A stretch of DNA of 51,821 nucleotides from Shigella phage pSf-1, in the sequence record KC710998, one strand, 5' to 3'. The notes under the pieces are model-generated. The model searched no databases and had not been told where the DNA came from. It saw nothing but the letters and a program-made list of their open reading frames with translations. The translations under genes and the position numbers were made by a program. Of the stretch, positions 1-51,821 are shown one piece after another; the first letter of the stretch is position 1; the number at the start of each line of letters is the position of its first letter.

Positions 1-1208
1 TGTTCATTCCCGTCTACATAAATACCAGCCCCAGGAGCTAAGGAAATACTTTTCGCTCCTGAAAAAGCACCATTTTCATTAAACTGATAATACTGTGATA
101 ACCCATTATGAAATACTCCTATTGTATGCTTTCCTACGCCTACTTGAGTCTCAAAATAAGACTGAGAAGATCCAATATCTTCACCTTGTGTACTCTTTAG
201 TTTTGAATGGTATATACCTGCGTTTGCAGTAGATGCATTTTCCGTTTCATTTTCAACATTAAGACTAAAGAACTTTGGCGCATGTTTCTCGCCAAGTCCT
301 ATATTGTTTCTGATGCCATTTGCGTCAATAGCTCCAGTACCACCAGAAGAAATAGCTAAAGGCACAGTTTCAAATGCACCAGATCCAGAAATATCTCTCT
401 GAAAAACAAGAAGACCATCATTTCTGATAACAAGCCTATATTCTCTATTTCTAGAGTACAAGATAGTATGTACGTAATCCTGAAAAAATGAATCAATACT
501 AAGCGTCTGGCGAGCAGATTCAATGTCAGAAAGATCTTTAAGATTCTGATCCTTATGCAATAGATTTTCAGGATTTACCTGTTGCGCCCACTGGCGAGCT
601 TCATCACGCGCCAATACAGCCTGATCGCGAGCGCCAAAAGCCTCTTGTTTAATGGCTTCCGTTTCGATTATAGCTGAATCTTTAATCTGTTGCGTTTGCG
701 CCTTGATTGCGTCAGTGTCTGATTTAATCTGGTTTGTTTCAGCAACAGCAGAATCCTTTATCTGTTGAGTGTTGTTTTTCAGTTGTTCAGTAGCAGCGCG
801 ATCATTGGCCGTTTTCTCTGCATCACTTTTAACCTGATTAGCCAGATCTTGCAGCTGTTTTAGGTCAAAGTTTTTGAAAAATTCAATAGCTTCCTCGATC
901 TGAGTTTCTTTGCTTTGATAGTAACGCAGCGTTTCCGCAACATCTTGCGCTAGTCCGTCAACAGTGATTGAGTCATGCAGCAAAATAATGTAGTTGCTTC
1001 GCCCAATTTCAGCGCCGCCAGTTGTGATGGCGCGTATTTGTGTATCGCTGATAACTTCACTGATCACAGCCGCTTGGAATGGTGCATCAATGAAAAAGAT
1101 TGTTGCACCAGGGCGAATGAGCGTTAGTTGCTCTCGCCATTTTGTGTCGTATCCAGTGATATAACCTTGCGCGTCCATTGACGCTTGTCCGGTTCTGTAA
1201 ATCGCCAT
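1..1208 (-). CDS. tail fiber protein, N-terminal part (3' end runs off window start; probably continuous with 50899..51821)
   Basis: ATG at 1208..1206 preceded by GGGAGA RBS; minus-strand frame open to position 1 (MAIYRTGQASMDAQGYITGYDTKWREQLTLIRPGATIFFIDAP...); absent from ORF track because truncated by window edge. Confidence 0.55.
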   Translation of the reverse strand, partial: MAIYRTGQASMDAQGYITGYDTKWREQLTLIRPGATIFFIDAPFQAAVISEVISDTQIRAITTGGAEIGRSNYIILLHDSITVDGLAQDVAETLRYYQSKETQIEEAIEFFKNFDLKQLQDLANQVKSDAEKTANDRAATEQLKNNTQQIKDSAVAETNQIKSDTDAIKAQTQQIKDSAIIETEAIKQEAFGARDQAVLARDEARQWAQQVNPENLLHKDQNLKDLSDIESARQTLSIDSFFQDYVHTILYSRNREYRLVIRNDGLLVFQRDISGSGAFETVPLAISSGGTGAIDANGIRNNIGLGEKHAPKFFSLNVENETENASTANAGIYHSKLKSTQGEDIGSSQSYFETQVGVGKHTIGVFHNGLSQYYQFNENGAFSGAKSISLAPGAGIYVDGNE

Positions 1209-1264
1209 GCGTTTTCTCCCGTGTTGCATGTTAATGTCAATGCAGATAATAGCATTTGCTAAGG

Positions 1265-1289
1265 CAAAAAAAAACCCCGCAATGCGGGG
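1265..1289 (-). terminator. rho-independent terminator downstream of primase gene
   Basis: CCCCGC-aat-GCGGGG hairpin preceded on + strand by A9 (T-run on minus strand). Confidence 0.6.
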
Positions 1290-1307
1290 TAAAAGTAGCA
1301 GTGACAT

Positions 1308-8879: not shown

Positions 8880-9296
8880 ATGCGAAAGTTATCACTAATC
8901 GCGATCGCTGTTATTTTGTCTGGATGTTCAAGCGTTACGCCACTGACCGGATTAATCGGTAGTAAGCCGGAAATCACCGCGCAGGCAGGAGCGGAGAACG
9001 TAAAGCAGACCGTAGGCCTGACAGCAAAACAGGACGCAAGCAACAAGCAGGATACAACCATTAAAGATTCGAAAGTTGACACGGTTGATACTTCCAGCAA
9101 AAAGGAGATCAAAACGTCAACCATTCAGGCAAACACCATCAAGGCTGATAAAATCCAGGTTGTGCAGGGTGAGCAAAGGAAGTGGTACGATCCTATAATC
9201 TATTGCGCTGCAATTTTCAGTGGTCTTTTGACTATGCTTTACTTTTCCTACCGCAAAGACAACAAAAAGGAGCTTAACGCCTCCTTTGTTTTATAG
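8880..9296 (+). CDS. unimolecular spanin (lipoprotein with C-terminal TMD)
   Basis: N-terminal lipobox LSGC and C-terminal transmembrane helix; position after endolysin. Confidence 0.6.
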   Translation: MRKLSLIAIAVILSGCSSVTPLTGLIGSKPEITAQAGAENVKQTVGLTAKQDASNKQDTTIKDSKVDTVDTSSKKEIKTSTIQANTIKADKIQVVQGEQRKWYDPIIYCAAIFSGLLTMLYFSYRKDNKKELNASFVL

Positions 9297-9705: not shown

Positions 9706-10113
9706 TCATGTGAGATTGAACTTACGGCGCAGAACTTCAATATTTTGTCTATTAGCATTTGACGTAAACAATTCTTCATCGCTCATTTCTCCGATCCTTA
9801 AAACATCCCTTACCCATTCGTTTTGCATACCTTCCAGACTGTAAAGTTCAAACGAGAAAGGTCGATTTGCAGACCCTTTCTTACACCAGAACTTTCCACC
9901 AACTCCATCAAGATAACCAGCGGTCATCATTCTTGCGCAAAACTCTTTTGAAACGGCGGTTGCAAACATTCTCGGCGTAAATCCTGCGGCCCTTGCGAGC
10001 CGCTCACATTCTCTATGCTGAAATATAAATTTTGCGATATGTTGACGTGTAAACCATTCGAATGACTCACACCAGCGATACAGATCCAAGATAAACAAAA
10101 TGTTACCTCCCAT
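9706..10113 (-). CDS. hypothetical protein
   Basis: ORF track; downstream of HNH gene in same operon. Confidence 0.35.
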   Translation of the reverse strand: MGGNILFILDLYRWCESFEWFTRQHIAKFIFQHRECERLARAAGFTPRMFATAVSKEFCARMMTAGYLDGVGGKFWCKKGSANRPFSFELYSLEGMQNEWVRDVLRIGEMSDEELFTSNANRQNIEVLRRKFNLT

Positions 10114-10615
10114 GATTGCAGTGATATTTTAGTTCGTTTTCTTTTGATCTTCTTGCGCAAGCCGCATCAAATATAGTTTTAAAATATCCAATACAAAATG
10201 TTTTTCCTAAAACTCCTATTTGTGCATAATACAGTCCATCTTTAGTTATTGTAACCCCAGTTAATCCAGTTTTGTTTCTTTTGTTTTTTGATAAGTTTTT
10301 TTGATTATCTTTCTTTCTAACAAGTCTTAGATTTTCTATCCTGTTGTCGTCGCGAATGTGGTTAATGTGATCAATCTCATATCCTTCTAGTATAGCGCCG
10401 TTATGCATTTCCCATATTATCCGATGCGCCAAAAATCTCCTTTTATTTATGTTTAATAATATATAACCAGATTCTAAATCCTTACATCCTGCAATCTTAC
10501 CAGAATATTGAGTGTTACATTTGCTCATTATTCTTTCGCATGAGAAGTGGCTTAATGGCCTGGTGCGCCATATAAGCGCACCATTTGAATATGTAAAATA
10601 ATCATGCCAATTCAT
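10103..10615 (-). CDS. HNH homing endonuclease with AP2-like DNA-binding domain
   Basis: HNH motif EIDHINHIRDDNRIENLRLV...N; AP2-like segment GVTITKDGLYYAQIGVLGKTFCIGYF; GGGGTAA RBS. Confidence 0.65.
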   Translation of the reverse strand: MNWHDYFTYSNGALIWRTRPLSHFSCERIMSKCNTQYSGKIAGCKDLESGYILLNINKRRFLAHRIIWEMHNGAILEGYEIDHINHIRDDNRIENLRLVRKKDNQKNLSKNKRNKTGLTGVTITKDGLYYAQIGVLGKTFCIGYFKTIFDAACARRSKENELKYHCNHGR

Positions 10616-10619
10616 AAAA

Positions 10620-12904: not shown

Positions 12905-12949
12905 GATTATGCCAGGTTTTGCACCTGGCGTTTTAACAAAAAGTGCTAT
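12905..12949 (-). promoter_or_regulatory. conserved promoter cassette (minus strand)
   Basis: 44-nt core identical to the plus-strand cassette at 17701..17744 (includes hairpin GCCAGGTGCAAAACCTGGC). Confidence 0.55.
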
Positions 12950-16381: not shown

Positions 16382-16974
16382 TTCTCAACTGGCGATTATT
16401 CCAACTATTCCATTAATCAGGAATAACAAGAATAACTCATTCGCGATCACCTGGATTGTGAGACTTTGAGTTTGGTCAATTTTAATCAAGTGATTAACTT
16501 TTTGTGTGGAGGGGATAGAGAAACGCGGCCCTCTTGCGTCCTTTCCGGCAATCCTGGCGCGCGCAATTGTTATCTTCTGTTATCGCTGTTATGCGTGTTA
16601 TTCCGGCGTGGAATCGCATAACAAAAAATAACAAGAAAAATCCATATAACATACTAAAAAATAAGGATTATTTATTTATATGTATCTATAAATTATTATC
16701 TGTTATGTGTGTTATGTGGGCGTATTGATACCAGATGTATTTTGGTGATTGTATGTGGTTGTGTGTTGGCTTGTATGTATATATGGGGTGGGGCGTATCC
16801 GCGCATTTTTAGATAACACGCAAAAACAACATTGATTTATAAGGAAAAGAACATGAATTTTGTTTCGTTCTTGAAACACAACATTGAAAAACTGCCAATA
16901 ACAATTAAAAACAGTTGACACGCCAGGAATGGTAAATGATAATGCAGCCACTGAATCACGAGGGGGGATAAAGC
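16382..16974. repeat. noncoding AT-rich island with TGTTAT/ATAACA iterons and TG-rich repeats (candidate origin or regulatory hub)
   Basis: four direct TGTTAT copies at 9-10 bp phasing (16568-16601), three ATAACA copies (16618-16651), TGTTATG x2 (16701-16715), GTGATTGT/TGTATGT repeats; no ORF of 60 aa or more. Confidence 0.6.
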
Positions 16975-17292
16975 ATGAGTGAGTCTGTGTTTACAAATGA
17001 GCTTCGCAAGGTTGCAATTGCTCTAGCCACTGGAGTACATGAATCTATCCAGATACCTGAAAGATGGGTAAGGCAGCACCTGGAGGGCAAGAAGTCAGCC
17101 AGCAACGCCGGATCATATCTGCGTCAGATTATGGGGCGCGTTCCAGAAGTGGCGGAGAAGGGGCGAGTTTCAGTATCAAAGAAACCTTACGGCCCTGATA
17201 GCGAATACTTCGGCGAAAATTACTTTGATGTGTCGATTGTTAATGCGCCGAATCGCAGGGTTTACAACAAGGCCGCGCTTGAGAAGCTGTAG
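16975..17292 (+). CDS. hypothetical protein (first gene of plus-strand early cluster)
   Basis: ATG with GAGGGGGGA RBS; a second frame stays open past the stop (possible indel). Confidence 0.45.
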   Translation: MSESVFTNELRKVAIALATGVHESIQIPERWVRQHLEGKKSASNAGSYLRQIMGRVPEVAEKGRVSVSKKPYGPDSEYFGENYFDVSIVNAPNRRVYNKAALEKL

Positions 17293-17445
17293 CGAAAGCA
17301 AAGCGCCAGGTTGCTGAGTCAATGCTTAAAGTCTCACCAAGCCTAGCGAACTACTCGCCAGATGAATATGAAACACTTGCTAAGGCGATCGCAGATTTTC
17401 ACGCGATCATTAAAGAAACATACCTTAACGATGAGGAACAATAAA

Positions 17446-17694
17446 ATGAGCAAACTTACGCTTGATGAACTGATGGAAAAAATTGATGAAGTGGGCTTTA
17501 ACAAGCTGGTTGATTTCCACTTGACCGCATGTGAAATCACCGCGCAGGAGTTTAGCGACATGCTATCTGATGCGAGCGAGATTTACACAAGCCTATGCGA
17601 AAGAGAAATCAAAGTCATTGAAATTGAGATGCCTGGAGATCCGGTATTCGCAAGGCTTGTGGCTGCATTCGATGAGGAGAATGTTGGACTCTGA
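17446..17694 (+). CDS. hypothetical protein
   Basis: ATG 17446 with GAGGAA RBS; track ORF 17362..17694. Confidence 0.45.
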   Translation: MSKLTLDELMEKIDEVGFNKLVDFHLTACEITAQEFSDMLSDASEIYTSLCEREIKVIEIEMPGDPVFARLVAAFDEENVGL

Positions 17695-17700
17695 CCGGAA

Positions 17701-17745
17701 ATAGCACTTTTTGTTAAAACGCCAGGTGCAAAACCTGGCATAATA
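17701..17745 (+). promoter_or_regulatory. conserved promoter cassette
   Basis: ATAGCACTTTTTGTTAAAAC + GCCAGGTGCAAAACCTGGC hairpin + ATAATA + CATCGAAACGAG leader. Confidence 0.55.
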
Positions 17746-17776
17746 ACCTCATCGAAACGAGATTGAGGAAAACAAA

Positions 17777-17962
17777 ATGGCACGTCGCATCACCAAAGAC
17801 CTTAAAGTCCTGAACAAAGAAAACGTAGTTAAAATCCTGGTTATCTGGGGATACAACGAAGAAACAGCAAAGCAGAAGGTAGAGGCAGGTTATGACATGG
17901 CTGTAAAAGCAATGCCAAACGACGACGCCAAAGGTATTGCAAACTATGTAGCTTTCTTTTAA
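17777..17962 (+). CDS. hypothetical protein
   Basis: ORF track; GAGGAA RBS. Confidence 0.45.
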   Translation: MARRITKDLKVLNKENVVKILVIWGYNEETAKQKVEAGYDMAVKAMPNDDAKGIANYVAFF

Positions 17963-17977
17963 TTAGCAGGTGAGTAA

Positions 17978-18163
17978 ATGAAAACGAAATTAGTCCATAA
18001 ATCAGAAATCAAGATCGGCGATACTGTGATTCACAACGGTGAGCTTAGAACGGTTGGCAAAGAGTCAATAAGCCACGATGAATTTATGGGGATCTTGTTG
18101 TTCGGTGACTCTTATCGTCTTGGTTACAAGATGGTTGAGCTTGTGGAAGAGGTAAAATTCTAA
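17978..18163 (+). CDS. hypothetical protein
   Basis: ORF track; AGGTGAG RBS. Confidence 0.45.
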   Translation: MKTKLVHKSEIKIGDTVIHNGELRTVGKESISHDEFMGILLFGDSYRLGYKMVELVEEVKF

Positions 18164-18208
18164 ATAGCACTTTTTGTTAAAACTCGAAAACGATAACCAG
18201 GCATAATA
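18164..18208 (+). promoter_or_regulatory. conserved promoter cassette
   Basis: motif + 19 nt + ATAATA. Confidence 0.55.
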
Positions 18209-18261
18209 AATCACATAGGGCGGCACGGCGTCGCCCAAAAAACCAATCAGGAGAAAGCACC

Positions 18262-21308: not shown

Positions 21309-21899
21309 ATGAAACGCGACATTATCATTCTTAACGGGCCGCCAGGAGTTGGCAAAGATACGCTTGCGGCATACTTAACGGGCCATCGTTACGCAGCGGT
21401 TAAAGCGTCATTTAAACAGCCTATGTTCGATATTGCATTCTCCATGCTTGGCGTTTACCGATATGACGAGTTCATTGATCTGTATAACGACCGCGAGCAG
21501 AAAGAAAAGCCTCAAGCAATCTTGCAAGGTAAGTCGCCGCGACAATTCATGATCTGGATTAGTGAAGAAGTCATGAAGCCAGCTTTTGGCAAGCAATATT
21601 TCGGAAATCGCATGGTTGAGCAAGTACACGAGATGTACAGAGATTTGGCTGTTGTAATTAGTGATGGCGGATTCCCTGAAGAAATCAAGCCGCTCGTTAA
21701 GGCAGGCCATGAGGTGCACATTTGCCGACTGCATCGCGAAGGCTTCACGTTTGATGGCGATTCACGAAACTATATTGACCTGAGCGGATACCATCACCGA
21801 GTCAATCATTACGACTTCACAATGATTGATGGCGAGCCAGAAAAGACTGTTGAAGAGATCATCAAAACGGTGCAGTGGAAACACACAAAGATTGAATAG
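21309..21899 (+). CDS. P-loop nucleotide/polynucleotide kinase
   Basis: Walker A GPPGVGKDT near N-terminus; start ATG 21309 with GGAG RBS (track ORF from 21294). Confidence 0.55.
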   Translation: MKRDIIILNGPPGVGKDTLAAYLTGHRYAAVKASFKQPMFDIAFSMLGVYRYDEFIDLYNDREQKEKPQAILQGKSPRQFMIWISEEVMKPAFGKQYFGNRMVEQVHEMYRDLAVVISDGGFPEEIKPLVKAGHEVHICRLHREGFTFDGDSRNYIDLSGYHHRVNHYDFTMIDGEPEKTVEEIIKTVQWKHTKIE

Positions 21900-21939
21900 C
21901 ACGAATTGCTAAAAGCGGGGCGCAATGCCTCGCTATAAT
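21896..21939 (+). promoter_or_regulatory. conserved promoter cassette (variant ATAGCACGAATTGCTAAAAG + TATAAT)
   Basis: TAG of kinase stop codon inside motif. Confidence 0.55.
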
Positions 21940-21969
21940 GCAAACACCAATCAACGAGAGGAAATCATC

Positions 21970-22371
21970 ATGGTAGAGTTAAACGACATTCGCGTTGGAA
22001 CAAGATTTCGCGTAACCTGGGCAGATGAAAATTGCGGCGTTAGTAAGGGGCAGGTTGTTACGGTGGATAGTATTTATCGCGGATACAGCAAAGACTTTCG
22101 CCGACCACGCATCAAGAATGGCTATATCATTACTCGACGTTTTGGCTTTGAGTGTTATTGCGTAGTGGCTACTCAAGGAGTTTTGATTGAGCTTCAGCGA
22201 ATCAGCGATCATCGCGGCTGTCATGTTAAGACAATGAAAGCACCATTTCAGCGAGCGCGATACGATGCGCGACGGATGCGCCGACTTGCTCGAAATGCGT
22301 TCAAGTTCAAAAAGCCTGGCAGTGATTTTTACGGCATGTACAAAAGGATTGCGCGAAATGCTGGGAAATAA
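21970..22371 (+). CDS. hypothetical protein (basic C-terminus)
   Basis: ATG 21970 with GAGAGG RBS; track ORF 21925..22371. Confidence 0.45.
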   Translation: MVELNDIRVGTRFRVTWADENCGVSKGQVVTVDSIYRGYSKDFRRPRIKNGYIITRRFGFECYCVVATQGVLIELQRISDHRGCHVKTMKAPFQRARYDARRMRRLARNAFKFKKPGSDFYGMYKRIARNAGK

Positions 22372-22470
22372 CAACAACGCAACCAATCCAAAGCCGCCAT
22401 TTGATTTTCATGAAATCATGATTGTGTTATTCTTGATTCTCTTAGTTGTTTATTCAGTGAGGGCCGCAAT

Positions 22471-22734
22471 ATGGTTTTTAATGCACTAAAACGAATCTTT
22501 AAACCTGAATACCGGATCGTTGCTTGCACAGAATGCAAGATTTATTATCTGCAACGCCGCCGCGTTATTAGTGGGGATTGGGAATATCTGACGGATGATG
22601 CTTTCGGATTTTGGGCTATGGAGTTCAATAGCTACAGCGAAGCGCGTGAGTACGCTAAAAAGTTGCACAAGTTCCGACCTTACAAACTGCGTTTGCTGGT
22701 TGTCAAAAAATGCGACGTGTGGGATCACGTATGA
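22471..22734 (+). CDS. hypothetical protein
   Basis: ORF track. Confidence 0.4.
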   Translation: MVFNALKRIFKPEYRIVACTECKIYYLQRRRVISGDWEYLTDDAFGFWAMEFNSYSEAREYAKKLHKFRPYKLRLLVVKKCDVWDHV

Positions 22735-22907
22735 AAAGAGTAATTATAACTTTTATTGCACTTATCGCTGGTTCTCACTTGGCTTATGGGTATAGCGGCA
22801 TTGTTGAGTCAATCGGCGGAATGATTATCTTCCTGGCTGGCGCATATTACGGCTATGGCGATGGATTTAAAAATGGCAAGCGTTACATCCTGACCGGGAA
22901 GAAATAA
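22731..22907 (+). CDS. small membrane protein (58 aa)
   Basis: MKRVIITFIALIAGSHLAYG...GMIIFLAGAYYGYG. Confidence 0.4.
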   Translation: MKRVIITFIALIAGSHLAYGYSGIVESIGGMIIFLAGAYYGYGDGFKNGKRYILTGKK

Positions 22908-22950
22908 TTTTTAACCGCGCCGCTTCGGTGGCGCTAAAAGGAGGAAACAA

Positions 22951-23238
22951 ATGGCTAAAAGCAATCGTAAAATGTTGATTAACGCATTCGAAAAGGCGGC
23001 GCTTGAGCGTGGTTGGAATGACTCATTTCACACGGCAAACTGTATCCGCCGTTACGGATTCAAGAATTGCCGCTCATGGGCGCGTGAAATGGCTTCATGG
23101 TATGATCTTGATGCGCATTACCTTGATATGGATTGCGCCCTGGTTGAAATGATTGAGCAGGCCGCATTAGAGGATCGACCATTAACGCAATCTGATTTTG
23201 ACGATTTTGTTCGCGATGAAATCTATTACATGAGCTAA
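22951..23238 (+). CDS. hypothetical protein
   Basis: AAGGAGGAAA RBS preceded by UUCG-loop hairpin. Confidence 0.45.
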   Translation: MAKSNRKMLINAFEKAALERGWNDSFHTANCIRRYGFKNCRSWAREMASWYDLDAHYLDMDCALVEMIEQAALEDRPLTQSDFDDFVRDEIYYMS

Positions 23239-23280
23239 TAGCACTTTTTGTTAAAACTTCCGCGAGGGCATTTGTTAAAG
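23238..23280 (+). promoter_or_regulatory. conserved promoter cassette (with TAAAGT -10-like)
   Basis: motif overlaps TAA stop/TAG; CATTGAAGCGAAACAGAGGA leader. Confidence 0.5.
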
Positions 23281-23313
23281 TGTCCTCATTGAAGCGAAAC
23301 AGAGGAAATCAAA

Positions 23314-23526
23314 ATGAAAATTCGAATCACCAGGGTTGACATTGACCGCAACGACGGAAGCATTACCCTTGAGCAATGCGGGTTCAAAGTTGGTGACATT
23401 GTAGAGGTTGACGGATTCTTTCGTGATGGTTCTTACTGCGTGTTAGCAATCCGCAACACGGAAGAAATTCGAATCGGTGATAACATCGGCGTAAACCATG
23501 ACGAATGCGAGGTAGTAGAGGAATGA
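23314..23526 (+). CDS. hypothetical protein
   Basis: ORF track; AGAGGAAA RBS. Confidence 0.45.
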   Translation: MKIRITRVDIDRNDGSITLEQCGFKVGDIVEVDGFFRDGSYCVLAIRNTEEIRIGDNIGVNHDECEVVEE

Positions 23527-23771
23527 TCACGATTAACCTTTCAGAAGAGCAAGCAAAGAAACTCCTGCATGCTGTAGGTTCTCGTGCACTTTGCGGATCA
23601 ACTGATGAAATGATGATTGATCATGAGGTTGCAAGAGAGCTTTTTACTCAGCTTGAGCAAAAATTCTCACCACGTCCGACCGACGCGGCAGAAACTGCAA
23701 AATGGCTTGCTGAGAATGGATACACGGCTTTAAAAGTTCACAACTGGAAGCGAAAAAACGAAGCGTTGTAG
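23523..23771 (+). CDS. hypothetical protein
   Basis: ATG 23523 with GAGGAATG; track ORF 23505..23771. Confidence 0.4.
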   Translation: MITINLSEEQAKKLLHAVGSRALCGSTDEMMIDHEVARELFTQLEQKFSPRPTDAAETAKWLAENGYTALKVHNWKRKNEAL

Positions 23772-44000: not shown

Positions 44001-44543
44001 GCATTAACAGCGAAGTTTGGAGATGTTGAATCAGCGCTTACAGAAAAACTTGATTCATGGGCTGGCGTTAATGGAGTTGGAGCACAGTACGCAATGAAAT
44101 TGGGATTGACCTACAACGGGCAGAAGTACAGCGCCGGAATGGTCATGCAGTTATCAAACAGCGCTCAAGGTTTGATTTCACAAATCCTTTTTGATGCTGG
44201 CAGATTTGCTATCATGACGAGTTCTACCGGAGGTTCGTATACATTGCCTTTTGTGGTCGAAAATAACCAAGTTTTCATCAATAGCTTGTTAGTTAAGGAT
44301 GGATCAATAAACAATGCGAAGATTGGAAACTTTATTCAGTCAAATAATTGGGATGGTAACAATGGTTGGCACATAAATAAAAATGGCGATGCGTATCTAA
44401 TGAACGCAACAGTTAGAGGTTCACTTTACGCATCAAACGGAAATTTTTCTTTTAATGGTACTAACAATACAGTTGTTATAAATAACAATGGTATAACTGT
44501 AAACCTTCCTAATGGCGGTCGCGTTGTTGTTGGTGTTTGGTAA
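41091..44543 (+). CDS. tail tip / host-specificity protein (lambda J-like)
   Basis: 1150 aa; N-terminus GSKGGSSKPYVPKEMEDNLISINKIKILLAVSDGE resembles J family start; GGTGAAAAAG RBS. Confidence 0.7.
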   Translation: MAENMITGSKGGSSKPYVPKEMEDNLISINKIKILLAVSDGECDPDFTLRDLYLDDVPVIADDGTVNYQGVKAEFRPGTQTQDYIQGFTDTSSEVTLARDITTSNPYVISVTNKTLSAIRIKMLMPTGIKQEDNGDLVGVKVTYAVDMAVDGDSYKEVLLDTIEGKTRSGYDRSRRIDLPAFNDRVLLRVRRVTADSASSRVTDLIKLQSYAEVIDAKFRYPLTGLVYVEFDSELFPNQIPNISIKKKWKLINVPSNYDPVLREYHGSWDGTFKKAWSNNPAWVLYDIITNQRYGLDQRELGVQVDKWSLYEAAQYCDQKVPDGKGGTEPRYLCDVVIQSQIEAYQLIRDICSIFRGMSFWNGESLSIVIDKPRDPSYIFTNDNVVDGDFQYTTASEKSMYTQCNVTFDDEQNMYQQDVEGVFDTEAALRFGYNPTSITAIGCTRRSEANRRGRWILKTNLRSTTVNFATGLEGMIPSIGDVIAIADNFHSSNLKLNLSGRVMEVSGLQVFVPFKIDARPGDFIIINKPDGKPVKRTISKVSGDGKTIELNIGFGFEVKPDTVFAIDRTDIALQQYVVTSIGKGDDDDEFTYSITAVEYDPNKYDEIDYGVNIDDRPTSIVQPDTMAAPENVQISSYSRIVQGASVETMVVSWDKVPYASLYEMQWRKGDGNWLNTPQTANKEIEVEGIYSGNYQVRVRSVSASGSTSPWSRIVTASLTGKVGEPGAPVNLTASDNEVFGIRVKWGMPEGSGDTAYIELHQSPDGTAENSSLLTLIPYPQYEYWHGTLPAGHVVWYRIRSVDRIGNVSSWTDFVRGMASDDVEAVLGDILDKIFDTEAGKDLKENAIDSANKIKDQAQSIIQNALANDTDVRIMRKENGKRKAEFRQSIQLIASETEARVTAMTQLKAEFDDEITSEVTRLDQAIATESETRATAIEELKSQIGDDIQGQLTRVEEAIANETEARVSADTALTAKFGDVESALTEKLDSWAGVNGVGAQYAMKLGLTYNGQKYSAGMVMQLSNSAQGLISQILFDAGRFAIMTSSTGGSYTLPFVVENNQVFINSLLVKDGSINNAKIGNFIQSNNWDGNNGWHINKNGDAYLMNATVRGSLYASNGNFSFNGTNNTVVINNNGITVNLPNGGRVVVGVW

Positions 44544-44547
44544 TGCA

Positions 44548-44572
44548 AAGGGGGCTTTTGCCCCCTTTTTTA
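44548..44572. terminator. bidirectional rho-independent terminator between convergent genes
   Basis: GGGGGC-tttt-GCCCCC flanked by A-run and T-run. Confidence 0.65.
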
Positions 44573-45535
44573 ATACATATTTGGAGTGAATGGTATAGGC
44601 ATTGAAATATTTATATTAAATGGAAATTGAGCGCCGCTCTGAGTAGAATAGTTACCTACCCTTGTTCCTGGGGTACTTCTTACGTTGCCACCACTCATGC
44701 ATACGCCCTTGTATCGAATGTTATTATATCCACCCGTAACTCTACATATTGTACCTGTTCTCAGTATTGGGAAAAATCCACCGCACCACTGCCAACCATC
44801 ATTTATCGCCATAGTCCCGCCAAGAACAAAAGGACGTCTAACGCTTGAGAAAACTATCTGACCAGCAGGATTGCTCATAGTGATTCCTGGTCCTGGAGGT
44901 GGTGGAGTGTTATTAAATATTACGAGTTGCACGTATACGCTCGCGCCAACGTCATCAATTCCGTTATAGTTTGCATCTCTGCACCATATCGTGTTGCCGT
45001 CAGATTCCAGAGTTACGTTTGGGTTATCCCACATTCCGAAAGGAACACCCTGGACTGGCAACTGAGCCTGACCGTTAACCTGGATTCCTCCAACAAATGC
45101 CGCGCTCATTAACCTGGCGTTGTTCGGTATTGATGCAAAGTCCGTTGAGTCGCTAACAAGTATCCCCTGATTACCCGCCTGAGCGGGGAGTATTTCGTAG
45201 CAGTTGCCGTAAAACCTCATTCTCCTTCCCCTGCTCCCGTTAAAATTACCTACCGTTATTCGACCAGTTGCGTCATTTACCTTTTGAAAGCTGGTTAAAT
45301 AATAAACTTCCGGTATGTAATCCATATCGTCGATATAAACGGCTTGAGATGGAAGGCAAAAAGCCGTTGATCCTGGACTCATTTGCAAACCAAAATCAAA
45401 TACTGATCCAGATGAATCAACTCCGTCGGCTTGTATAGGTCCACACCATGATGGGGCGCGAAGTCCCGATGTTATCTCCATTGCCGGACGACCGTCATTT
45501 AGGTTTATATATATTCCCTGCCCCATAATTACCAC
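44570..45535 (-). CDS. putative receptor-binding protein (inference from context)
   Basis: 321 aa, Gly/Asn/Ser-rich; co-oriented with and directly downstream of lipoprotein gene; convergent with J. Confidence 0.35.
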   Translation of the reverse strand: MVIMGQGIYINLNDGRPAMEITSGLRAPSWCGPIQADGVDSSGSVFDFGLQMSPGSTAFCLPSQAVYIDDMDYIPEVYYLTSFQKVNDATGRITVGNFNGSRGRRMRFYGNCYEILPAQAGNQGILVSDSTDFASIPNNARLMSAAFVGGIQVNGQAQLPVQGVPFGMWDNPNVTLESDGNTIWCRDANYNGIDDVGASVYVQLVIFNNTPPPPGPGITMSNPAGQIVFSSVRRPFVLGGTMAINDGWQWCGGFFPILRTGTICRVTGGYNNIRYKGVCMSGGNVRSTPGTRVGNYSTQSGAQFPFNINISMPIPFTPNMY

Positions 45536-45759
45536 TCTTTAGTTTTGATTGATACCTTGCCGCTAAAGTTGCCCTGGACGTCATCGGATGACAGACCTTT
45601 GAATCGCATATCTATTTCGCCAGCCGGAATCTTCTGACCATCAACTAATCGCACCATGCAAGATCCGTAAGTGTAAGTAACACAGTCGCCATTTTTAAGA
45701 TTCTGAGCACAACCAGTCAGGGCAACGGCTGCAATCAAAACGGCGATTAACTCTTTCAT
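45529..45759 (-). CDS. small lipoprotein, Llp/Cor-like superinfection-exclusion candidate
   Basis: signal peptide + lipobox LTGC at residues 14-17; 76 aa; AAGGAG RBS. Confidence 0.5.
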   Translation of the reverse strand: MKELIAVLIAAVALTGCAQNLKNGDCVTYTYGSCMVRLVDGQKIPAGEIDMRFKGLSSDDVQGNFSGKVSIKTKEW

Positions 45760-50017: not shown

Positions 50018-50719
50018 TCAGCCGCAACAGCCAGTAGGCGGAGTCTGAGGAGTAGGCAACTTGAAGTTTACCAATTGCTCTACCTGGTTGATTTTGCAAT
50101 TCAGTGCGGCGGTCTGGTTTGCCTGAGAAAGAGCAAAACGAGCCTCCTGCAACTGAGCTTTCATATCGCAAATCAGAACAGCCTGAGAATCAGCGAACTG
50201 TTGACGAATCAGATCTCGCGTTGCGTTACCTTGTCGCTCAATGTTCAGGTTAGTCTCGCAGCAACATCTCTCCGCTGCAATCTGTGCCTGATAGGAACGC
50301 TCAAGAGCATTAACATCAGCAGCATTAATTGCAGCAACCGTCTGGTTAGTACCGCTAACAATCGCGGTATTCAGTCCGGCGAAACCTTGCACCGATGCAA
50401 GCAGGTTTTGCGTATTCTGGCTGGTAATGCCGTTAAAGGTTGATGCGGCGGAGCGCTCAACGGTAAGGTTTGTGGAGTTTTGGCCTTGCAGAGTTTGCAG
50501 CCCCAGGTTGTTTACGCCTGTCTGGATGTTGTTAATACCATCAAGAACAGCGTTAGCACCGACAGCAACAGCAGCACCATCACCACCATAACCGCCGCGA
50601 CCATTAAAGCCGTTACCAAACCATGACCCAATCAGGCCACCAACAGCACCGCCAAGACCAGCCGCGCCAGCTTCGCCACCAAAACCACCACCAGTAGGGA
50701 GTAAAGTCATATCTGACAT
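50018..50719 (-). CDS. glycine-rich protein with Cys cluster (function unknown)
   Basis: N-terminal GGGFGGEAGAAGLGGAVGG...GRGGYGG low-complexity region, internal CCC and C-terminal GCCG; AGAGGAA RBS. Confidence 0.45.
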   Translation of the reverse strand: MSDMTLLPTGGGFGGEAGAAGLGGAVGGLIGSWFGNGFNGRGGYGGDGAAVAVGANAVLDGINNIQTGVNNLGLQTLQGQNSTNLTVERSAASTFNGITSQNTQNLLASVQGFAGLNTAIVSGTNQTVAAINAADVNALERSYQAQIAAERCCCETNLNIERQGNATRDLIRQQFADSQAVLICDMKAQLQEARFALSQANQTAALNCKINQVEQLVNFKLPTPQTPPTGCCG

Positions 50720-50854
50720 AGTAAATTCCTCTTTGACGTTAAAAAAATTAAAAAAAAGTTTGCAACATTTATGTTACGACAAAGAGTATGCGCCCAATTA
50801 CCATGAATAGATATAAAATATTTGTAAGCAATATGTAAGCAACTAGCATAAAGA

Positions 50855-50883
50855 CGAAAAAAAGCGCAGCATGAGCCGCGCTT
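50855..50883 (-). terminator. rho-independent terminator downstream of tail fiber gene
   Basis: AAGCGC...GCGCTT hairpin, followed on minus strand by T-run. Confidence 0.55.
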
Positions 50884-50898
50884 GAGTTAAAAATATTG

Positions 50899-51821
50899 TT
50901 ATTTATTGAGCAGTGCAGCAACAGCCGCCTTTAATTCGTCTATCTCCTTTTGCTGGTTTTCGATCATTCCTCCCATGTAAACCATAGCGCAAGCCATATC
51001 AGCCATGATCACGTTGTTGTCAAGAGCAAGCGTATCATCTGCTTTGTCAACCACAATTTGACGATCTACATATTCTTCACCTTCATCATTAACGCCTATA
51101 ACATCTGCAAAAATGTCCCCGCCAGGTATTAGCTTTACATATTCAGGATCTATTTTTAGCAGATCCTGAGCTATCATCCCAAATCGCTGAATGTTGCTTC
51201 CATTGTATTTAAACATTGTCGGAAGCCACTGCATAACGCGATCATAGCTTTCCTTTCCATCTGTATAAATTATATCGTGCTTCAAATCTCTGTCAGAGTT
51301 AGCGGCCTTTTGAAAAATGAAATTTCCACTTGATGACCATGTGGTTATATCGTTTGAGGCTGGCTGAAACTGGAAGTTACAGAAAAAATTACCATCACCA
51401 CGAAGTCTTAATGAGCAAAAAGGCCAAGCATTATTTCCCTGTGGGATAAGACCCCAAGTTGCACGAATTGGATAACCACCAGTTGATTGTGTACCCCATG
51501 AAAGGCCAGGCGCCCATCCACCGTCATTGTTAGGGATAATCTCGCCCCAAACAAGAGCATTACCCCAATAGTTAGGATCATCCATCCATTTGTTGGGTTT
51601 TGCCAGTGTATTGAGCAGAATGCGTTCTGCCGTCAGGGTAAAACTTGTGCATATAGCTTTGCACACCATGTTTATACAGTTCAATCCCAAACGACTCAAT
51701 TTGTGCAGCACCGCCTCTGATCAAACCAGCGATAGCGTAATCGCTATACCAGTTGTAACGACTTACACCAGTCCATGAGTTCATTGGTGGATTCATGATT
51801 GAATATAGTTGTGACGGATTG
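50899..51821 (-). CDS. tail fiber protein, C-terminal part with S74-type intramolecular chaperone domain (frame disrupted near 51580-51715)
   Basis: SDRDLKHDIIYTDG... autoproteolytic chaperone-like motif in ORF 50899..51711; upstream ORF 51578..51796 is in frame with the minus-strand ORF at 1..1208 if window ends are joined. Confidence 0.5.

Follow-up and report, generated by a model that had tools for sequence, protein, structure and literature searches.

The Shigella phage pSf-1 record as a circular map opened within the lateral tail fibre gene, and its probable consensus errors

Introduction

The sequence record of Shigella phage pSf-1 (KC710998) begins and ends inside open reading frames of a tail fibre gene, which raises the question whether its two ends are neighbours in the genome and, if so, what the gene across them encodes and why its frame is broken again close to one end. 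The window referred to below is the whole record, 51,821 bp long with a GC content of 44.0% (the Hanrivervirus comparison figure in the table of PMC7552041 is 44.1%).

Several published findings bear on this question. TLS, a phage of the same subfamily, uses pac-site headful packaging like T1 and has terminally redundant, partially permuted virion DNA with a submolar pac fragment; in Drexlerviridae it is the terminase that defines both the pac site and the partially permuted ends (PMC11447400). For the same packaging reason a Tunavirus was assembled as a contig with overlapping ends (PMC7471380). The lateral fibres of Drexlerviridae have only the far N-terminus in common, and their locus lies between the recombination genes and the primase/helicase genes (BASEL preprint). 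In pb1 of phage T5, a 133-residue chaperone with the residues Ser1264 and Lys1269 is cleaved off after trimer folding, which unmasks the receptor-binding tip (PMC4690869).

Materials and methods

Window positions 50700..51821 were joined in silico to positions 1..1300, and the reverse complement was translated from the ATG at 1208..1206. A joined stretch of 2232 nt was used as a megablast query against 50,697 phage records. The reference Hanrivervirus genomes were slyngel (a Salmonella phage, NC_049821), G29-2 (Escherichia phage vB_EcoS_G29-2, NC_049822), herni (NC_049823) and vojen (NC_049824). Proteins of slyngel were compared with the window by tblastn, and vojen served as the second reference for indels. 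The variant of the fibre gene with the deletion was sought in IMG/VR and in metagenomes as the 21-mer CAACAAATGGATGGATGATCC.

Results

An open reading frame across the ends of the record

The minus-strand frame from 1208 had been described as remaining open across 1|51821, and translation bears this out: an uninterrupted ORF of 483 codons leads from ATG 1208..1206, preceded by GGGAGA, through the join to TGA 51580..51578. The protein sequence over the join is ...GAGIYVDGNE-H-NPSQLYSIMNPP..., also given as ...GAGIYVDGNE-H-NPSQLYSIMNPPMNSW..., and the codon of His403 (CAC) is split 2+1 between window positions 2..1 and 51821. About 81 codons are open beyond the join, with a chance probability of about 2%; the open frame is genuine, and homology is decisive beyond this chance figure.

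A second minus-strand frame is open from 51711 to TAA 50901..50899 and holds SDRDLKHDIIYTDG. This ORF (50899..51711, GTG start) had been taken for the C-terminal region of the fibre, which is correct below approximately 51585, whereas 51586-51711 is an alternative frame of the upstream part. The fused gene (1208 to 1, then 51821 to 50899) comprises 2131 nt, that is 3n+1, and therefore one frame break is needed. In tblastn, residues 1-423 of the slyngel fibre protein gp40 match the 5' part of the pSf-1 gene at 91% identity, and residues 505-731 match the 3' part at 99.1% identity in frame -3. The features of the locus are listed in Table 1; on the 5' side, the fibre transcription unit is bounded by the hairpin behind the upstream primase gene.

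Table 1. Window positions of the parts of the fibre gene, the adjacent hairpins and the other split genes
Feature	Positions	Strand	Basis or remark
5' part of the lateral tail fibre gene, codons 1-402 and two bases of codon 403	1..1208	minus	translation
N-terminal anchor domain, residues 1-179	672..1208	minus	phmmer, PHROG
Same frame past the join, to the premature TGA 51580..51578	51578..51821	minus	translation, alignment
Frame break, two GG runs vs GGG, net 2-nt deficit	51582..51587	minus	MAFFT and BLAST
3' part of the fibre gene, read in the shifted frame: remaining distal receptor-binding region, chaperone, TAA	50899..51585	minus	tblastn
Peptidase_S74 domain, residues 579-710	50902..51297	minus	Pfam PF13884
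Intrinsic terminator-like hairpin followed by a T run, just past the fibre stop	50862..50883	minus	homologous site annotated as terminator in G29-2
Terminator-like hairpin after the upstream primase gene	1274..1290	minus	homologous terminator annotated in G29-2
Small terminase gene (terS), split	25354		1-nt deletion in C/G run
Portal gene, split	27977		1-nt deletion in C/G run
679-aa helicase gene, split	4527		1-nt deletion in C/G run
Methylase-like gp58 gene, split	13201		1-nt deletion in C/G run
gp14 homolog, split	30977		1-nt deletion in C/G run
gp56 homolog, split	12430		1-nt deletion in C/G run
gp75 homolog, split	20718		1-nt deletion in C/G run

The record as a closed circle

The size and GC content of pSf-1 are typical for Hanrivervirus (about 49-52 kb, about 44% GC). 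At the nucleotide level, each half of the window matches herni, vojen, slyngel and G29-2 at 94-97% identity with 75-100% query cover. Genera are demarcated in ICTV practice at about 70% genome-wide nucleotide similarity, and by this measure pSf-1 belongs to Hanrivervirus (Drexlerviridae, Tempevirinae). The BLAST map of pSf-1 against slyngel is colinear around the circle, with conserved gene order.

In the megablast search of the 50,697 phage records, 11 contained one place that spans at least 80% of the joined 2232-nt stretch. Five 'Campylobacter phage' records of the E6 type match it in a single piece (100% coverage, 95.1% identity), and slyngel and G29-2 also cover 100% of the query; the matches in E6-type records, slyngel and G29-2 are always internal to the record. 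The four-way MAFFT alignment contains no indels except a 63-nt in-frame block and a 2-nt gap, and the join is free of any. G29-2 is identical to pSf-1 base for base over 51821|1, and in the whole-genome BLAST pairing window position 51821 corresponds to slyngel 29348, and position 2 to slyngel 29350. In the reverse direction, the end-to-start join of slyngel lies inside one HSP at window 21371..23755. No overlap was found between the first and the last 3 kb of the window. The ends of the record are thus adjacent in independent relatives, with neither gap nor duplication. Synteny continues through the join (primase, fibre, 233-aa gene): the genes at the window start (primase, regulator, helicase) and those at its end (233, 107, 163 and 85 aa) follow the same order as in the relatives.

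Because the join is gapless in the relatives, slyngel closes in the same way and head and tail do not overlap, the window can be read as one complete circular unit. The proposal that the record is a complete, closable genome linearised inside the tail fibre gene therefore holds, and the check suggested for it, joining the ends in silico and aligning them to relatives, gave a seamless fit to E6-type records, slyngel and G29-2. Judged from its sequence, the pSf-1 record is the circular map of a Hanrivervirus (a T1-like siphovirus), one unit long and opened at an arbitrary point. The opposing view, in which the record stops at genuine physical ends or at a misassembly join and the ORF continuity is coincidental or chimeric, is highly improbable: its sole point is that the record is linear, and against it stand the seamless join in three related genomes, the reciprocal closure of slyngel and the fact that the pac-type ends of the family lie close to the terminase region rather than within the fibre gene.

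The E6-type matches belong to a group of records (MG065643.1 and about 20 siblings) that are titled 'UNVERIFIED: Campylobacter phage' with the host C. jejuni and are in fact enterobacterial Hanriverviruses with about 95% identity. They are probably mislabelled or represent contaminant phages.

Terminase and packaging

The small terminase is of the P22 gp3 type. The slyngel TerS ortholog scores 37.3 bits with the Pfam family GP3_package (P22 gp3 family; cut-off 29.4), and the pSf-1 copy is 94-100% identical to it and split by a 1-nt deletion. Circular closure is expected, since pac-site headful genomes are terminally redundant. The preliminary description had stated that linearisation inside the fibre gene fits headful packaging; this is true only in a general way, in that terminally redundant genomes yield circles on assembly, but the cut point itself is uninformative. 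Where the circle is opened was chosen arbitrarily by the assembler or depositor and says nothing about physical ends or packaging.

Domains of the fibre protein

After repair of the frame break (see below), the 710-aa protein matches tail fibre PHROGs over its whole length, with PHROG families matching residues 1-180. The anchor is homologous to residues 1-182 of the Klebsiella phage depolymerases 7vyv/7lzj (phmmer, E = 5e-51). Conserved anchor, variable remainder and locus are all as in Drexlerviridae lateral fibres, and the pSf-1 gene order agrees. In six metagenome contigs with an identical downstream gene, the fibre gene is common only over its first 350-600 nt.

The coiled-coil shaft has repeats of the QQIKDSA type. 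The 63-nt (21-codon) in-frame block, at window 611/612, is present in slyngel and G29-2 and absent from pSf-1 and E6, apparently a length polymorphism of repeat units in the shaft.

An S74-type chaperone motif had been noticed at the C-terminus, and Pfam recovers it: Peptidase_S74 (PF13884) matches residues 579-633 over profile positions 1-58 of 58, with 34.2 bits against a curated cut-off of 22 (E = 3.2e-8). Within SDRDLK, Ser579 (codon 51297..51295) and Lys584 (codon 51282..51280) form a dyad five residues apart, the spacing of Ser1264/Lys1269 in T5 pb1, and the 132-residue domain (133 residues in pb1) extends to the C-terminus. The assignment rests on the Pfam profile, as a search of PDB sequences with the last 151 aa found nothing of the S74 type beyond one weak match (8hqz, E = 0.11). 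T5 pb1 itself was not recovered in the PDB sequence search.

Relatives of the distal fibre

From approximately residue 229 onwards the fibre is 82% identical over 480 residues to gp079 of OSYSP, a T5-like phage of E. coli O157:H7, where gp079 follows the collar protein for L-shaped fibre attachment. At the nucleotide level, the distal part of about 1.18 kb (fibre nt 916-2095; window 50983..51821 and 1..293) shows 88-91.5% identity to T5-like fibre genes of OSYSP, EC148 and SUT_E phages, several of which were isolated on E. coli O157:H7. To judge by these matches, the distal fibre is the product of a cross-family exchange of a host-range module between Drexlerviridae and T5-like phages.

Metagenome and Logan contigs of about 51 kb encode an identical 233-aa protein beside fibre alleles of 495-708 aa, one of which has Phage_tail_C_2 in place of S74. 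The variable alleles beside this gene show rapid allele turnover at the fibre locus. As comparators at the frame break these contigs were unusable, since their fibre alleles diverge after the anchor. Elsewhere in the window, 10101-10618, 16581-18240 and 44349-45707 have no BLAST match to slyngel; the last of these segments lies just after the gpJ-like tail-tip gene, and the BASEL work places the terminal receptor-binding-protein locus after the gpJ-like gene.

The frame break in the fibre gene

A further frame break had been placed within about 51580-51715, and two missing bases were found at 51582-51587. The letters at this site are ATGGATGGATGA in pSf-1 vs ATGGGNTGGGAYGA in four comparators, one G being short in each GGG run. 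pSf-1 reads CAAATGGATGGATGA with GG runs at 51587-51586 and 51583-51582; E6 has CAAATGGGATGGGATGA / ATGGGATGGGATGA and an intact frame, slyngel and G29-2 have CAAATGGGGTGGGACGA, and the T5-like OSYSP has CAAATGGGCTGGGATGA. E6, slyngel, G29-2 and OSYSP all translate to QQMGWDDPNYW here, with the frame continuing. The two missing G's create the TGA at 51580..51578, and their restoration yields a single ORF of 710 aa.

The search for the 21-mer CAACAAATGGATGGATGATCC gave no matches in IMG/VR and 21 metagenome contigs, none of which has the flanks of pSf-1 or aligns to the fibre gene. In 20 of the 21 it stands just after an ATG (MSNNKWMDDP... or MTTNKWMDDP...), and in the remaining contig the context is different. 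These matches were rejected as coincidental, all being in unrelated contexts. In the fibre context, the deleted variant was found in no other sequence of IMG/VR or the metagenomes. The intact pattern occurs in one IMG/VR contig, which is of OSYSP size, a sample too small to say much.

One-base deletions across the record

Comparison with slyngel proteins by tblastn revealed seven other genes that are split over two frames in pSf-1 and intact in relatives (Table 1). Slyngel and vojen both carry the extra base at each of the seven sites. With the fibre included, at least eight genes of the record are frameshifted. The 3' end of the spanin gene likewise has a 1-nt deletion, at 9271. An exact protein look-up found no record of the truncated portal fragment of pSf-1.

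When window-specific indels were defined by slyngel and vojen agreeing against pSf-1, 15 deletions and 2 insertions were obtained. Each of the insertions pairs with a deletion close by, so that the unpaired events are 13 deletions and no insertions. Further window-specific 1-nt deletions, at 22951, 30938, 45928, 46111 and 13681, are intergenic or at gene boundaries, mostly in A runs; some of the small deletions in diverged or intergenic stretches could be real. Taken as a sequence pattern, the one-directional, run-associated deletions point to base-calling or consensus error. A phage with broken portal, terminase and helicase genes would not be viable, and thus the deletions cannot all be real.

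Three of 14 small deletions (12430, 25354 and 30977) fall inside CCWGG, a Dcm-type motif that accounts for 1.2% of the sequence (post hoc binomial P about 6e-4), and another deletion adjoins CCAGG at 12916. Base modification has been reported to induce nanopore read errors (PMC11610603), and Drexlerviridae phages encode adenine and cytosine methyltransferases (BASEL preprint, PMC7552041). The overlap with CCWGG suggests methylation-linked base-calling errors. The errors may be attributable to a particular sequencing platform; a long-read-only assembly of methylated phage DNA would account for both the deletion bias and the link with CCWGG.

Discussion

The pSf-1 record is very probably a unit circle opened arbitrarily in codon 403 of a fibre gene that, when intact, encodes a protein of about 710 aa, and its frame break is very probably an error. 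Most likely the fibre gene is broken by a base-calling or consensus error rather than by biology. The evidence for this is indirect: 1-nt deletions of the same kind occur in seven further conserved genes, of which three are indispensable.

Two other accounts of the break were weighed. According to the first, the 2-nt deficit is real and leaves the phage either with a truncated fibre of 483 aa that has neither distal tip nor chaperone, or without any functional side fibre. On K-12 or rough hosts, Drexlerviridae and T5-like phages are considered able to do without their lateral fibres, which would make such a loss viable (BASEL preprint), and the break removes exactly the receptor-binding end. 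We nevertheless consider a real truncation unlikely, given that the genes of portal, small terminase and helicase have comparable 1-nt deletions, not all of which can be genuine if the phage is viable; moreover, the last 227 residues have kept 99.1% identity to slyngel and show no other damage, and no other fibre sequence in IMG/VR or the metagenomes carries the variant. A mutation of this kind can be selected during propagation on laboratory strains lacking O antigen. In its wider form, in which the missing G's are a natural or laboratory-selected variant and the fibre is either truncated or re-initiated as a second polypeptide at ATGGATGA, the proposal is rather improbable as well. If it were true, the locus would provide a small example of G-run slippage switching off a host-range determinant.

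According to the second account the break is functional, through programmed frameshifting, stop/start coupling (ATGGATGA) or a natural two-protein fibre, and this is very improbable. An ATG of the downstream frame (51585..51583) overlaps the TGA at 51580..51578, superficially like a coupled two-gene arrangement, and two-protein lateral fibres are known in related phages (BASEL preprint). However, this ATG is preceded by no Shine-Dalgarno sequence, and CAAATGGATGGATGA contains no slippery heptamer. Two phage families are represented among the four comparators, which all read through the conserved QQMGWDDPNYW, and the site falls within a stretch continuously alignable and highly similar to T5-like fibres (nt 916-2095; 851-2043 vs OSYSP). 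Programmed frameshifting was rejected, as the relatives have a single intact frame and there is no slippery site. The record-wide pattern of deletions is the simpler account.

With the break read as an error, the product would be a homotrimeric side fibre of about 710 aa, with an N-terminal anchor common to Drexlerviridae followed by a coiled-coil shaft. The distal domain, exchanged with T5-like L-shaped fibres, would presumably bind a surface glycan. By analogy with T5 pb1 and the endosialidase of phage K1F, the S74 chaperone may aid trimer folding and then cleave itself off before Ser579, and the tip exposed in this way may then bind the glycan.

All of this lies within known phage biology: the initial observation is correct but ordinary, and the main value of the analysis is practical, as a warning on record quality. 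Annotators should rotate the record or join its ends, because the fibre gene otherwise falls apart into two unlisted fragments and is lost. In the genes of the fibre, portal, small terminase, helicase and four others, the frame breaks should be treated as probable consensus errors that need polishing, and not be reported as pseudogenes or recoding. The fibre itself is a clear but expected case of Drexlerviridae/T5-like module exchange at a host-range locus.

Compared with known systems, pSf-1 shares with T1 and TLS the small terminase of the P22 gp3 family and a genome that closes into a circle, TLS being of the same subfamily; their mode of packaging was demonstrated for TLS, whereas pSf-1 is known as a unit-length sequence from which pac site and redundancy are not readable. 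To the Hanrivervirus genomes slyngel, G29-2, herni and vojen it is 94-97% identical over most of the genome, with the fibre gene likewise between the primase gene and the 233-aa gene, and with the same circular gene order, size and GC content. The opening point of these records is different; slyngel and G29-2 have a fibre of 731 aa vs 710 aa, owing to the 63-nt block, and the Hanrivervirus relatives have intact genes where at least eight are frameshifted in pSf-1. E6, A143 and C4 (MG0656xx, Hanrivervirus) provide the best full-length fibre match (95.1%, single piece, 711-codon class); unlike pSf-1, they have ATGGGATGGGATGA at the break site and an intact frame. With the T5-like L-shaped fibres (OSYSP gp079, T5 pb1), the pSf-1 fibre has in common a C-terminal chaperone, predicted to be self-cleaving in pSf-1, with a Ser...Lys dyad; in contrast to them, its anchor and shaft are of the Drexlerviridae type, and its length is 710 aa vs 969 aa in OSYSP and 1396 aa in T5 pb1.
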